From: Candidatus Methylomirabilota bacterium
Lineage (GTDB): Bacteria; Methylomirabilota; Methylomirabilia; Rokubacteriales; CSP1-6
NCBI GenBank assembly: GCA_046726415.1
Contig: JBKPAK010000090.1
Span: 1 to 46,015 of the forward strand
DNA length: 46,015 nt
Reading direction: 5' to 3'
This document shows positions 15,001 through 18,000 of this stretch, piece by piece. The position numbers are program-made. Within the stretch, counting starts at the first letter, position 1. Every line of letters starts with the position of its first letter.

Positions 15001-18000
15001 GGTGCGCCACTCCGAAGCGGTGCTGTTCGTCGACCACGGCCAGGCCGAGTCGGCGAAAGGTCACTCCCTCCTGCACGAGGGCATGCGTGCCCACTGCGCA
15101 CGCGACCTCCCCCGAGGAGAGCGCGGCGCGCCGGGTGTCGCGCTGGCGCGCCGTGAGGGAGGACGTGAAGAGGGCCACCGGCACCCCGAGTGGCGCCAGG
15201 AGCTGCTGGAAGGTCATGAAGTGCTGCTCGGCGAGAATTTCGGTCGGCGCCATGACCGCAGCCTGGTAGCCCGCTTCCACTGCGGTCAGCACGGCCAGGG
15301 CCGCCACGATGGTCTTGCCGGAGCCGACGTCGCCCTGGAGGAGGCGGTGCATGGGAAACGGCGCGGCCATGTCGGCGCGAATCTCGTCCCACACGTGCTC
15401 CTGAGCGGTAGTGAGCGTGTAGGGCAAGCCGGCGCGAAGCCGCGCCACGAGCTGACCCTGGGGCTGGAGCGCGATGCCGCGCGCCCGCGTGGTGCGCGCC
15501 CGCAAGATCGCCAGCCCCAGTTGGAGGAACAAAAAGTCGTCAAAGACCAGCCGGCGGCTGGCCAGCGACAGCGCGCTCTCCGTTTCGGGAAAGTGAGCGA
15601 TGCGAAGGGCGTCGGCCAGCGTGGGAAGGCGTTGGCGATCCCGGATCGGCGCGGGCAGCACCTCGCCCACATCGCGGACGTGGGCGTCGACCAGCGCGCG
15701 CATGAGCGTGCGCAGTGAGCGCTGCGGCAACCCGTCCGTCGTCGAATAGATCGGCACCAGACGCCCCGTGTGCAGCCGCTCGTCGTCGCCGGCCTCGACC
15801 AGCTCCCAGTCCTGAACCTGGATGGTCATCTGACCCCGGTGGGGTTTGGCCTTGCCGTGGAGCACGAGGCGCTGGCCGCGCGAGAAGGCCCGCGCGAGAT
15901 GCCCGCGCCGGCCGAAAAATGCGGCCACCGCGAACCCGCTGTCGTCGCGCAAGAGGGTCGTGAAGGGCGCACGGGATCTCGGCGGGGGCGGGCTGACGCC
16001 GACGATGACGCCCGAACACGTTCGCACGTCGCCCCCCCGGAGCTGGCGAAACGGGGTCAGCTGCGTGCGATCCTCATGACGGATCGGAACAAAGAAGAGG
16101 GCGTCGCCCACCGTGGACAGGCCCTTGCGGGCGAGCAGCTGCGCGCGCCGCGGCCCGATGCCCTTCACGAACTGCAGGGGCACCTGGAGGCCCGCCACGG
16201 CCGCCGTTTGCCTCTCGGGCACGTCTGTGCTATACAACGGATTCGTCTCTGCTACACGTCGTCGACGTCCAAGGGGTGTTCATGGCTCAGCGATGTGACA
16301 TCTGCGCGAAACATCCGGCTGTCGGCAACTCCGTCAGCCACGCTCACAAGCTCACGCGGCGACGGTGGATGCCGAATCTGATCTCCATGCGCATCATGGT
16401 CGGCGGTACGCCGCGGCGGGCGCGCGTGTGCACTCGTTGTCTGAAGGCCGGCAAGGTCACCAAGGTCATTTGAGCACACACGGGAGGGGGGTCCACCCCC
16501 CTCCCGGATGGCATGAGGTGGGAGGCTGCCACCCCCCACCTGGCATGAGCGGTCCCTACTTCTTCTTGGCCTTCTTCTTCGTCGCCTTCTTCTTCATCGA
16601 GTCTCTCACCTCCTCTCACGCGCTGTTGAATACGGACCAGGCTCGGTCGCCCTACTTCTTCTTCTTCTTGGCCGCCTTCTTCTTCGCCACGGATGAGCTC
16701 ACCTCCTTCCTGTCGCCCCGCGCCATCATCCCGTCAGTAGCCCATGGCTTCTCGGCGGAGATGCTGCGCCTGGTCGGCTCCCCGGGGCTCGTAGCGAGCG
16801 AGGTCCACGAACAGCTGAGGAAGTGACGTGACCCGCAGACCGCCCTTCTCGAGCAGTCCGTAGAACACGCCGACGTCGTACGGCGCCAAGAGGTGCAGCG
16901 TCCCGTCTGCCTCGGCCACGGGTCTCAGGCCCAGTCTGGCAGCCACTGGCGCGGGATCTCCCTCGAGGTACGCGTGCGCCGCCGTCATGCGCAGATGCGG
17001 CGCCACCAAAGACAGTCCGGCGCTCATCGTAAACGCGTAACGGCGTCCTTCCGCCTCAGCCGTGTGAGCCACCTCGACCTGGAACTTCCGGGTGATGCGC
17101 TCGGGAACCGCATAGGACGCGATGTCGTTCTCGCGATAGGTGTACGAATCGCTCCAGCTTTCCAGGAGGTCGGCCGGCTTGGTCAGCCGGAGCCGGTCGC
17201 TAGTATCCCGCTCGAGCCAGGCCAGCTCCTCGAGACGCTTCACGACATTGTGCGAATGTCCGAGGCTGATGTCCGCCGCCTTGGCCAATTCCCCCAATCG
17301 CCACGCCCGTCCGATCTCCGAGAGCAGAACGCGAACGACCCGCGTCGCGCGGGGCGCAAAGAGGGACCGGAGGGGCCGGGTGGAGGCGCCGATATTTCGC
17401 TTTCCTTCCTTCTCGATCAGGATGTTCTCGAGGGCGAGATAGCAGTTCCCCGACAGATCGATGTAGCCAAAATTGTGGGATTTCAAGATTCGAGCGCTCT
17501 CGGGGCCGATGTAGACAGCCGCTGCAGCTGGGTAAGCGGACGGCATCTCCCGGCGAAGCTCTGCCAGCCGAGTCACCGCGGCGCGGATCTGTCGAGGTTG
17601 GCCAAGGCTGCTGGCCTCAAGCACCACGGCGTGCTCCTGCTCGCCCACCCGAAATCTGACAAGCAAATTGGCGGTCTGGCGCCCAATTTTCGCATCGAAG
17701 CTCTCCTCCCAGCCTCGCGCCTTCGGGAACAGCTCGCGCAATCGCTGCGAGACTTGCGCCCGAATGTCTGGAAGTTTGAGCATGTTTCGCTGACTCCATG
17801 GGTTTCAGCATCTGCTGAAACAATAAGAACCACTGAAAACGCCTGTCAAGCAAAAACTTACGGACCGGGGCGGCGTTGTTACTTACCTACCCAGGACGGA
17901 GGTGTCGCTGAGAGCCTCGAGAACCTGGTGGCGCAGTGGCCACGTCCACCCTTCCGAACTACTCGCCCCTTCCGAACTACTCGCCGTCCTCGATGCGATG

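Follow-up and report, generated by a model that had tools for sequence, protein, structure and literature searches.

Tandem lysine-rich micro-genes occupy the toxin position behind an AbiEi_2-like core regulator in Rokubacteriales

The histone H1-like tails known so far exceed 100 aa or belong to proteins with a folded domain, and DNA binding by a 12-mer is weaker. Hc2 (PF07382), as described in PMC2848022, consists of Lys/Ala(/Pro)-rich repeats that vary in number. The micro-peptides analyzed here are alike in both respects, but they measure 9-36 aa and have no folded domain, whereas Hc2 spans 165-237 aa and AlgP carries a 154-aa tail on a larger protein. According to PMC9239181, the KPAA tail of AlgP is required for the spacing of polyphosphate granules, and PMC5974015 reports that DNA compaction by MDP1 is driven by its disordered C-terminal tail. 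For Rokubacteria, PMC5712423 describes cells of 0.3-0.4 um with large genomes and proposes that extensive DNA packaging is needed. Another related system is the AbiE type IV toxin-antitoxin (TA) module, whose first gene encodes a winged helix-turn-helix (wHTH) protein with an AbiEi_2 domain and whose promoter contains an inverted repeat. The operon examined here shares these features; however, AbiE modules are mobile and continue with an AbiEii/AbiGii nucleotidyltransferase gene, whereas here micro-genes follow and the regulator is a core, syntenic gene.

We analyzed a 46,015-nt stretch of a Candidatus Methylomirabilota genome (contig JBKPAK010000090.1; hereafter the window). A preliminary description had proposed two micro-ORFs led by Shine-Dalgarno (SD) sequences, and both were found on the minus strand (Table 1). 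Their ribosome-binding sites are near-perfect, with 8 nt between AGGAGGTGA and the start codon in each case. A pattern of SD, start and Lys codons matched twice within the window and not once in 100 shuffles. Among 9,645 SD-led short-ORF starts in the whole genome, only five ORFs contained at least 30% Lys, two of which are this pair. Both peptides are mostly lysine, with a net charge of about +8, and MAKKKAAKKKKK recurs more often than any other sequence in the family (39 of 152 ORFs). In addition, RNA-library contigs from relatives span the pair; strand, level and DNA contamination cannot be read from these contigs, library depth at 80% likeness adds up Lys-rich genes from other organisms, so genes were not ranked by it, and stretches without cover carry no weight.

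Table 1. Features of the micro-gene operon and its convergent neighbor (positions in the window).
Feature	Position	Strand	Remarks
Operon promoter, sigma-70 type (TTGACA, 18 nt, TATTGT)	17820..17849	-	1 site vs 0.1 expected in shuffles
Putative operator of the AbiEi-like protein: 18-bp palindrome TTTCAGC-N4-GCTGAAA, located at the predicted transcription start	17803..17820	.	64/64 orthologous promoters
AbiEi_2-like regulator, 349 aa	16734..17783	-	PD-(D/E)xK-like fold, winged HTH, AbiEi_2 domain
Shine-Dalgarno AGGAGGTGA, micro-gene 1	16699..16707	-	sequence pattern
Micro-gene 1, 12 aa, MAKKKAAKKKKK	16652..16690	-	GTG start, TAG stop
Shine-Dalgarno AGGAGGTGA, micro-gene 2	16606..16614	-	sequence pattern
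Micro-gene 2, 13 aa, MKKKATKKKAKKK	16556..16597	-	ATG start, TAG stop
Stem-loop 1, downstream of the last stop codon; may stabilize the mRNA 3' end or bind a protein	16516..16541	-	conserved fold
Stem-loop 2, G+C-rich, with a loop that varies; candidate terminator for this operon and for convergent rpmB	16481..16506	-	fold
rpmB (bL28), convergent neighbor	16282..16473	+	PF00830, E 9e-21

The DNA matches first tallied in 45/45 family and 69/81 phylum genomes were borne out in a larger set (124/125 and 180/201, respectively, weak low-complexity matches counted). A stricter SD+ORF+stop pattern was present in 138/201 phylum genomes, with two matches in the reversed control. These genome tallies (124/125, 180/201 and 138/201) and the regulator tally given below (45/45) include the unpublished genomes G029, G047, G058, G101 and G151; loci L012, L056, L057, L322 and L517 also stem from unpublished genomes, no conclusion depends solely on them, and locus L316 is a chance match without a micro-ORF. 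The 30 best loci were said to contain at least one ORF each and two in 19 of them; in our set, two ORFs were found in 29 of 30, although the two sets of loci may differ.

Across the phylum, 182 ORFs of 10-32 aa were collected (K 66%, A 23%, net charge +7 to +16), from which acidic and aromatic residues are almost absent and in which start spacing and reading frame are kept. For the 152 ORFs analyzed further, an SD lies 4-9 nt upstream of the start in every case, start codons interchange (119 ATG, 31 GTG and two TTG), and both Lys codons and all four Ala codons are used. Stops are exclusively TAA or TAG throughout the phylum set, including all of the 121 ORFs from loci found by a pattern without a stop, while TGA terminates 1,634 of 2,563 genes genome-wide (33 of the 115 genes ending in Lys), 53 of 70 abiEi-like genes and 15 of 68 rpmB genes. 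What substitutions preserve is charge (K/R) and small residue size rather than the purine triplet. The family has one to four copies per genome and no conserved Arg, Gly or aromatic anchor residue; its charge is conserved, its length and residue order are not. The inter-ORF spacers drift freely in sequence and are spread over the three frames (21, 14 and 14 of 49), and thus a single read-through or frameshifted product of both ORFs was ruled out. The micro-ORFs are real, conserved genes and, judging from these signals, are probably translated.

An artefact of low-complexity DNA, or the shadow of an antisense Phe-rich peptide (a type I toxin or membrane segment), has a next to negligible probability. 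The opposite strand is indeed Tyr-Phe-rich in the frame sharing third codon positions, and one true shadow exists in this genome (contig C189, antisense to an ABC permease). However, it is the Lys strand that has a fixed SD, start and stop, and the shuffle and reversed controls are near zero. The antisense frame lacks a start in 47/119 Rokubacteriales ORFs and 63/107 species-wide ORFs, its start and stop are unfixed, and no conserved antisense ORF with start and SD was found, so that an antisense peptide was rejected.

The gene upstream had been described as a solo AbiEi_2-like gene. Its identity held (PF09952 above the cut-off, E 4.6e-7), but it is more than a neighbor: it heads the operon, is a core gene (45/45 family genomes) and has toxin-linked paralogues. 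PF09952 also accounts for 88% of its Atlas cluster, and its structure model (pLDDT 85.6) gave weak Foldseek matches (best E 1.8e-3); PADLOC and NCBIfam profile searches returned no match. In Rokubacteriales the regulator is syntenic, mostly single-copy and toxin-less. One to three micro-ORFs lie 18-193 nt downstream of it in 65/65 loci, where a cognate nucleotidyltransferase toxin gene directly behind the regulator is absent. These include 8/8 loci chosen by protein match and 2/2 further families. In mobile regulator paralogues, an AbiEii-like toxin gene occupies the position of the micro-genes: nucleotidyltransferase/AbiEii profiles match all six scanned downstream genes, one above the cut-off, and 0/8 paralogue loci contain a micro-ORF. 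Homologues 31-36% identical to the regulator, on plasmids and within the phylum, are likewise followed by AbiEii-like genes, and the AbiEii-like matches in this genome sit on contigs other than the micro-gene contig. The micro-genes therefore stand in the toxin position behind an antitoxin-type regulator. The distance from the -35 box to the palindrome is fixed in 63/64 orthologous promoters, and the regulator presumably binds this palindrome. The palindrome occurs once in this genome, which argues against a palindrome-based regulon. Contig ends in the RNA-library cover had hinted at a promoter within the last third of the abiEi-like coding sequence, but a comparison of 52 orthologues showed no conservation of the candidate hexamer, and the idea was dropped.

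Downstream of the last stop, the region 16470-16555 folds with a z of -3.5 on the micro-gene strand, and no structure is predicted for the ORF region (z 0.03). A distance of 11-23 nt separates the stop from stem 1, which does not overlap the ORF. Among 78 loci selected by likeness to stem 1, an identical 24-mer was present in 59, a compensatory pair in three and a G-U change in three. Stem 2 was missing from the terminator list because it has no long U-tract. Stand-alone copies of the micro-genes, first reported with a common hairpin in 9 of 10 loci, carry it in 20/21 loci here and a sigma-70-like promoter in 18/21; none was present among the SD-led short ORFs of this genome. The earlier statement that no Rfam family matches was also confirmed: the window stretch gave a single chance hit (E 2.1), and 20 loci gave only unrelated RNase P and tRNA hits, none at micro-gene elements.

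The flanking of the best loci by the AbiEi_2-like gene and rpmB, as previously stated, was found in 30/30. The convergent arrangement with rpmB, however, holds for Rokubacteriales and was not seen in the loci of other orders or phyla. This bears on the suggestion that the peptides bind nucleic acids or ribosomes. A ribosome- or RNA-associated polycation, either a tiny ribosomal protein or a chaperone loosely bound to rRNA or mRNA, would suit small, very basic peptides with strong expression signals, which are near-universal in Rokubacteriales and adjoin rpmB there. Since the adjacency is restricted to that order and rpmB is convergent, it lends no support to a ribosomal role. Lengths of 9-36 aa and one to four copies per genome speak against a fixed ribosomal site, as does the lack of an anchor residue, and PDB sequence searches gave no match, with no chain at E up to 10 for a 23-aa variant. 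We regard a ribosome- or RNA-associated role as unlikely, although a loose, non-stoichiometric one would be compatible with these data; nucleic-acid binding, as judged from composition and analogy, is the likeliest function.

The family was previously thought to be conserved across Rokubacteria. It is near-universal in Rokubacteriales but is not confined to this order. Other orders of the phylum have longer forms (18-32 aa) with KPAA/PKKAA-type units, where the micro-gene pair lies directly behind a degenerate wHTH+HEPN module conserved across six families. This module matches PDC-M05A/B (PADLOC) and PF05168; the HEPN active-site motif, R-x4-6-H, is present in only one of eight modules, and the MNT motif appears degenerate. 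In a species-wide scan, with a pattern weighted differently from that behind the earlier 81 stretches, 109/120 matches were in-frame look-alikes of 9-18 aa, although the pattern did not force the frame. They occur in CPR (including the shortest, 9 aa), DPANN, Planctomycetota, Omnitrophota, Eremiobacterota, Acidobacteriota and Chloroflexota, patchily (0-4% of phylum samples), and small-celled lineages outside the phylum had the family in 1/150, 5/120 and 0/80. A phage origin was rejected: a loose viral pattern, of whose 120 matches 80 were examined, hit mostly C-termini of longer repeat proteins without an SD, and a strict one gave one locus.

The toxin position raises the question of a TA-like growth brake, in which derepression would lead to mass translation of Lys codons that drains Lys-tRNA and ribosomes, or to a polycation that shuts down the nucleoid, and hence to dormancy. 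The micro-genes sit exactly where a toxin is expected behind the AbiEi-like gene, and a second TA-derived module, wHTH+HEPN, precedes them in other orders. On the other hand, the stand-alone copies have consensus promoters with no such palindrome evident in the upstream stretches examined, and no regulator was seen as a recurring neighbor outside the phylum. Toxicity through peptidyl-tRNA drop-off is typical of far shorter minigenes. A growth brake is thus quite unlikely, even though PMC5974015 describes growth arrest caused by the MDP1 tail.

The scan also bears on the idea that the RNA is the product, with (AAG)n tracts and stems that would lure away an A-rich-RNA-binding protein (Hfq/CsrA type) or the 30S subunit as a decoy, and the ORF protecting or timing the RNA. 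AAG repeats match an ARN-type binding motif, and the unstructured ORF region and nearly invariant stem 1 would agree with it. But the start, the frame and the stop have been retained in bacteria and archaea alike (109/120 in the scan; 128/128 ORFs of the antisense comparison), changes retain K/R charge and small residues rather than the purine triplet, and Rfam has no family here, which makes an RNA decoy very unlikely.

At one nadD-linked planctomycete locus, the peptide ranges from 12 to 36 aa. The gene downstream is lysA in some genomes of this clade and an unrelated gene in others; elsewhere secA, a Cys/Met PLP enzyme and many unrelated genes follow. Lysine-sensing leader peptides that attenuate a downstream gene could draw on this lysA, on the succession of Lys-codon runs and stems, and on a possible alternative pairing of stems 1 and 2. 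Nevertheless, the chance of such attenuation is slender: the next gene in Rokubacteriales is convergent, with no same-strand pathway gene, and stem 1 starts too far behind the stop to overlap control codons in the unstructured ORF.

The 182 ORFs have the Lys/Ala-rich, acid-free low-complexity composition typical of H1-like tails, but repeat regions above 100 aa, which often sit on a folded domain, are absent (lengths are 10-32 aa within the phylum and 9-18 aa among the species-wide matches). The planctomycete order with the nadD-linked locus also has 39-, 62- and 102-aa genes with similar SD and start, at loci without nadD, and the 102-aa gene passes Pfam HC2 (PF07382; 56.4 bits, cut-off 40). 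Variants of 20-62 aa did not pass PF07382 or the NCBIfam H1-like models (best E 0.058), and the window peptides (12-13 aa) are below the size limit of profile tools. Because the 20-62 aa forms fail the profiles and the 102-aa gene lies outside the nadD locus, homology to Hc2 is not established. As a lead only, a 36-aa variant fell among hypothetical clusters in the ESM Atlas, the nearest named one being HC2 (0.84, low recognition). None of eight variants (20-39 aa) is present as an exact sequence in a collection of 15 billion proteins, and a literature search, which did not extend to the table of DNA-packaging proteins in PMC5712423, found nothing on this family.

In our preferred reading, to which we give slightly better than even odds (about 55%), the micro-genes encode an abundant stand-alone tail of the histone H1/Hc2 type that neutralizes DNA or other polyanions and is dosed by a domesticated TA regulator. 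The peptides would be short unstructured polycations, a minimal version of the Lys/Ala-rich tails of Hc2, AlgP and HupB/MDP1. From the sigma-70 promoter, one predicted mRNA would cover the regulator and one to three micro-genes and end at the two stems, and the AbiEi-like protein would set the dose by binding the palindrome over its own start site. The arrangement points to a regulator descended from a type IV antitoxin, with the micro-genes having taken the place of the former toxin gene. Ala at position 2, which marks highly expressed proteins according to PMC1397820, the maximal SD, the unstructured A-rich frame and the TAA/TAG stops suggest very high output, to which tandem and extra promoter-bearing copies would add. 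By composition and analogy, the peptides may bind polyanions without sequence specificity, most likely DNA, with polyphosphate and RNA as possible co-targets, and could serve as a gene-encoded polyamine or protamine that helps a very small cell accommodate a genome of 5-8 Mb. They are no simple replacement of missing polyamines, since spermidine-synthase-like genes are present in 5/5 Rokubacteriales tested. The near-invariant loop of stem 1 counts against the polycation reading, which leaves it unaccounted for. Further points against it are the patchy distribution outside the phylum, even in small-celled lineages, and the greater length of the known H1-like tails.

Peptides of nearly pure Lys/Ala behind modules derived from nucleotidyltransferase-fold systems might instead be substrates, either precursors or sinks for lysine acetylation or nucleotidylation or a nitrogen/lysine store. 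This is highly improbable, considering that no modifying-enzyme neighbor is conserved, that the MNT-like and HEPN motifs appear degenerate, and that there is no division into leader and core. An attenuator, an antisense toxin and a fixed-site ribosomal protein fit poorly. As a tentative and rather doubtful extension of the polycation reading, "naked histone tails" of 9-30 aa, forming a class that spans domains, might act as gene-encoded polyamines condensing the chromosomes of cells that are small or dormant; two unrelated TA modules of Methylomirabilota would have been disarmed and kept as autoregulated peptide switches, so that a TA circuit controls nucleoid compaction or dormancy.

These loci represent a clear case of TA domestication, with an antitoxin gene fixed as core regulator after its toxin gene was presumably replaced, and a second TA-like module that plays this role in sister orders. 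The micro-genes, which gene finders overlook both in this group and in bacterial and archaeal lineages scattered outside it, would rank among the shortest conserved stand-alone protein genes, and trypsin would fragment their peptides, adding to the difficulty of detection. The motif is ready for use in annotating the family across many uncultured lineages, and the peptides are a concrete, cheaply synthesized candidate for how a large Rokubacteria genome fits the 0.3-0.4 um cell described in PMC5712423.

Compared with known systems, the module of other orders matches wHTH-MNT/HEPN pairs (PDC-M05A/B), except that its motifs are degenerate and micro-genes lie directly behind it. Like bTHX, bS22, bL37 and eS32/eL41, the micro-genes are tiny, basic and easily overlooked. 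Those ribosomal proteins are single-copy, of fixed length and marked by specific residues, whereas the micro-genes vary in length and copy number and the 23-aa variant has no PDB match. The his, trp, thr and Thermus lys leaders combine a short ORF rich in one amino acid with stems behind it; in contrast, the Rokubacteriales locus has no regulated downstream gene, its stems lie outside the ORF, and tandem and stand-alone copies exist. Finally, the micro-genes differ from H1-like proteins in their tandem arrangement, in short forms without a profile match, and in their TA-derived operon.

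Both Lys-rich micro-ORFs proposed in the preliminary description were recovered on the minus strand as a tandem pair, ORF1 (12 aa) and ORF2 (13 aa), each with the Shine-Dalgarno (SD) sequence AGGAGGTGA 8 nt upstream of its start codon. As had also been described, the upstream gene is AbiEi_2-like (PF09952, E 4.6e-7), rpmB is the convergent neighbour, and an Rfam search of the stretch found no family. An SD+start+Lys pattern gave two matches in the window versus none in 100 shuffles. Among the 9,645 SD-led short-ORF starts of the source genome, five ORFs contain ≥30% Lys: both micro-ORFs, two others of 20 aa (contig C53) and 6 aa, and a shadow read antisense to an ABC permease gene. 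The separate C53 ORF carries AGGAGGTGA, with a TATAAT box upstream and an ABC-type ATPase-like gene downstream. The shadow was rejected as merely antisense and is a caution for automated searches of such micro-genes.

Features with coordinates (C, contigs of the source genome; L, loci read elsewhere)
Feature	Sequence	Position	Strand	Remark
Micro-gene 1 (ORF1)	window	16690-16652	-	GTG start, MAKKKAAKKKKK, TAG stop
Micro-gene 2 (ORF2)	window	16597-16556	-	ATG start, MKKKATKKKAKKK, TAG stop
Regulator	window	16734-17783	-	AbiEi_2-like
recG	window	14126-16237	-	cassette neighbour, order conserved across Rokubacteriales
Zincin-like gene	window	17977-18351	-	as recG
relA/spoT-like gene	window	18367-20526	-	as recG; relA label by sequence reading
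Lys-rich ORF	C53	11099-11161	+	MAKGKSMQKEKKKPKQKKTK
Rejected ORF	C189	57082-57114	+	SD-led, antisense of ABC permease
AbiEii-like match	C268	1853-2447		split in two pieces
AbiEii-like match	C337	6001-6504		
Longer variant	L520	1998-2096		Cys at/near C-terminus
Longer variant	L521	1998-2087		Cys at/near C-terminus
Longer variant	L518	2128-2202		Cys at/near C-terminus
Viral ORF	L099	about 1501-1553	-	13 aa, Lys-rich, SD-led, with terminator

The claimed conservation through Rokubacteriales was borne out: 124 of 125 genomes of the family have a DNA match (weak matches counted), and both flanking genes are present in all 30 best loci, 29 of which hold two ORFs. The single family genome with no DNA match, G111 (87% complete), has no regulator gene either. 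Across the phylum Methylomirabilota, 180/201 genomes have a DNA match (weak ones again counted) and 138/201 the SD+ORF+stop pattern, versus two hits with a reversed control; these counts and that of the regulator (45/45 family genomes; 2/2 in the sister family) take in unpublished G029, G047, G058, G101 and G151, on which alone no conclusion depends. In 65 loci holding the regulator 3' end, mostly found via the micro-ORF DNA itself, the first ORF starts 18-193 nt past the regulator stop, and there are two ORFs in 57, one in 6 and three in 2. Micro-ORFs were also present in 8/8 loci picked by protein match and 2/2 from further families. In several genera (L034, L036, L039, L041, L067, L068, L327, L329), ORF1 has 21-23 aa and is richer in Arg and Gly, with ORF2 still at 12-13 aa, which suggests a division of roles.

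Judged by their sequence signature, the micro-ORFs appear to behave as protein genes and are presumably translated. In a set of 152 distinct ORFs, 4-9 nt separate the SD core from the start. Start codons interchange (ATG 119, GTG 31, TTG 2); the four Ala codons are all in use, as are the two for Lys. Moreover, at loci found by patterns without a stop, 121/121 ORFs end in TAA or TAG; TGA ends 1,634 of 2,563 long genes and 33 of 115 genes ending in Lys in the source genome, and is used freely by genes neighbouring the micro-ORFs (these counts come from kin, hence are not independent and carry no p-value). The ORF1-ORF2 spacer (39-79 nt) is spread across all three frames. A Phe-rich antisense frame sharing third codon positions might imitate these signals; however, it lacks a start in 47/119 cases and its ends are not fixed. 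In two sediment runs, RNA-library contigs of relatives cover both ORFs; a soil RNA contig (3 differences) spans the regulator end and most of ORF1; this is weak evidence, because strand and level are not shown and DNA may be present. Overall, an artefact is extremely improbable.

A sigma-70 promoter is predicted for the regulator, which heads the operon. An 18-bp palindrome occupies the inferred start site in 64/64 orthologous promoters and occurs once in the source genome; the regulator may control its own expression. Two stems lie downstream of ORF2 (fold z -3.5), and in one family one stem follows each ORF. Stem 1 is nearly invariant, and a few compensatory and G-U changes favour the micro-ORF strand, among loci chosen by likeness to stem 1. 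Stand-alone copies in other genomes, previously said to have promoter and hairpin, have their own promoter in 18/21 and the shared hairpin in 20/21 loci; none was found in the source genome. Such stems could suit an RNA decoy or an attenuator. We consider the decoy very unlikely and attenuation more so.

In the regulator model (pLDDT 85.6), an alpha/beta domain at the N-terminus is followed by a winged helix and a C-terminal domain; all Foldseek rows were weak, the proteins hit being wHTH proteins and nuclease folds of the EndoMS/XisH type. Paralogues are sporadic (33-36% identity), have their own inverted repeats, and showed no micro-ORF at 8 loci. The downstream gene was scanned at six of these and matched a nucleotidyltransferase or AbiEii profile each time, once above cut-off, and plasmid homologues are annotated AbiEi + AbiEii/AbiGii. 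Since toxin-type genes stand behind paralogues and plasmid homologues, the micro-genes occupy the usual toxin position, and the regulator would be a toxin-less antitoxin. The AbiEii-like matches on C268 and C337 are possible partners in trans. A toxin-antitoxin (TA)-like growth brake fits this position; we regard such a brake as quite unlikely. The cassette is not a type I TA system.

Elsewhere in the phylum, in six further families, a micro-gene pair or triplet directly follows a different module, wHTH(-MNT-like) + HEPN, matching PADLOC PDC-M05. The peptides span 12-32 aa; those of one family have 18-32 aa and contain PKKAA-type units. The HEPN motif, R-x4-6-H, occurs in 1/8 HEPN proteins of the module. 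A HEPN query matched 5/10 genomes, with peptides behind the gene in 5/5. One family gave 0/18 with the SD+ORF+stop pattern, which does not accommodate the greater length or different start of its peptides. Two of the Cys-bearing longer variants end in Gly-Arg-Gly-Cys; the Cys could serve dimerisation or modification.

The micro-genes had been ascribed to Rokubacteria; conservation there stands, but look-alikes occur in other phyla too. Across 185,579 species genomes, a pattern that left the frame free and demanded a final AAA codon, weighting it against Rokubacteria, gave at least 120 matches. Among the 120 listed, 109 hold an ORF of 9-18 aa in frame; 80 of the loci listed are titled, 71 of these being in frame and one Rokubacteria. 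Titles among the matches listed include archaea (Woesearchaeota, Pacearchaeota, Micrarchaeota, Iainarchaeum) and bacteria (Patescibacteria, Planctomycetota, Omnitrophota, Eremiobacterota, Acidiferrales, Chloroflexi, others), some of which look wrong by gene context: L227, L229, L246 and L260, titled 'uncultured Gammaproteobacteria', are probably mislabelled because their context is that of CPR loci. At 64 AT-rich loci, 55% of the Lys codons in micro-ORFs are AAG, versus 24% in neighbouring ORFs. In metagenomes, 128/128 matches across 120 stretches are in frame, 59 beside an AbiEi-like gene. A stem and then a terminator follow the ORF in three groups read, the TTGACA promoter is plain at CPR loci, and neighbouring genes vary by lineage. 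Samples from the seed genomes' phyla and orders, counting true short ORFs with frames checked and seeds excluded, gave Planctomycetota 0/120, Omnitrophota 0/80, Eremiobacterota 0/60, Patescibacteria 1/150, Woesearchaeota's phylum 5/120, Gallionellaceae's phylum 0/120, a Bacilli-titled phylum 0/100, a CPR order 8/50 and Sedimentisphaerales 11/60 (12-102 aa), all lower bounds because the pattern is strict. Thus, the spread outside the phylum is patchy. The likeness lies in very simple sequence, and shared origin or convergence would both fit.

Several look-alike loci have features of their own. At CPR loci ordered serS - micro-gene - secA (L205, L211, L227, L272, L341, L376-L380), a poly-Lys ORF of 9-11 aa is directly followed by conserved inverted repeats TTACCAATT / AATTGGTAA and a terminator; the repeats could form alternative pairings or a protein operator upstream of secA. 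L203, L244, L256, L268 and L207 (Eremiobacterota, Acidobacteriota-like) have a ~130-nt conserved leader ahead of the SD and, downstream, a gene for a Cys/Met PLP enzyme, an arrangement common to two phyla; four loci scanned had no Rfam match. The ORF on an IMG/VR phage contig (L099) is the sole strict viral match. Phage proteins with Met/Lys/Gly-rich repeat ends (L073-L150, many IMG/VR contigs) matched a loose pattern and are not micro-genes.

The peptides are 66% Lys and 23% Ala, with a net charge of +7 to +16 and Ala second in 156/182 ORFs. Positive charge, small spacer residues and heavy-translation signals are kept across the family, and length, residue order and copy number are not, which argues for a non-specific polyanion binder rather than a part with a single binding site. 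At a nadD-linked planctomycete locus, peptide length ranges from 12 to 36 aa; a 102-aa gene from the same order, with a like SD and start, passes Pfam HC2 and sits away from the nadD locus. We therefore favour, at a probability of roughly 0.55, peptides that would bind and condense DNA or other polyanions, their dose being set by the domesticated AbiEi-like regulator. In mycobacteria, tails of the H1-like kind compact DNA (PMC5974015), and in Pseudomonas they space polyphosphate granules (PMC9239181). Rokubacteria were described as cells of 0.3-0.4 um with large genomes, for which extensive DNA packaging or dormancy was proposed (PMC5712423). Against condensation stand the lack of a match between the short forms and H1-like profiles, the presence of spermidine-synthase-like genes, the many small-celled lineages without a match in the patterned samples, and the invariant loop of stem 1, for which it does not account. 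Such cationic peptides might instead associate with the ribosome or RNA, which we think rather unlikely given the variable length and copy number, or be a modification substrate or store, which has only a slim chance.

The literature searched, which covers few subscription papers, yielded no description of the family, and exact sequences of eight longer variants gave 0/8 in a 15-billion-protein collection; the ESM Atlas contains unnamed clusters of similar small proteins (weak). The operon differs from AbiE in its missing toxin gene and is therefore not an AbiE system, nor is the cassette an attenuator. The closest comparison is the histone-H1-like tail, whose mode of action is like that proposed here: the micro-genes would be a variation on this theme, outside its length and profile bounds.
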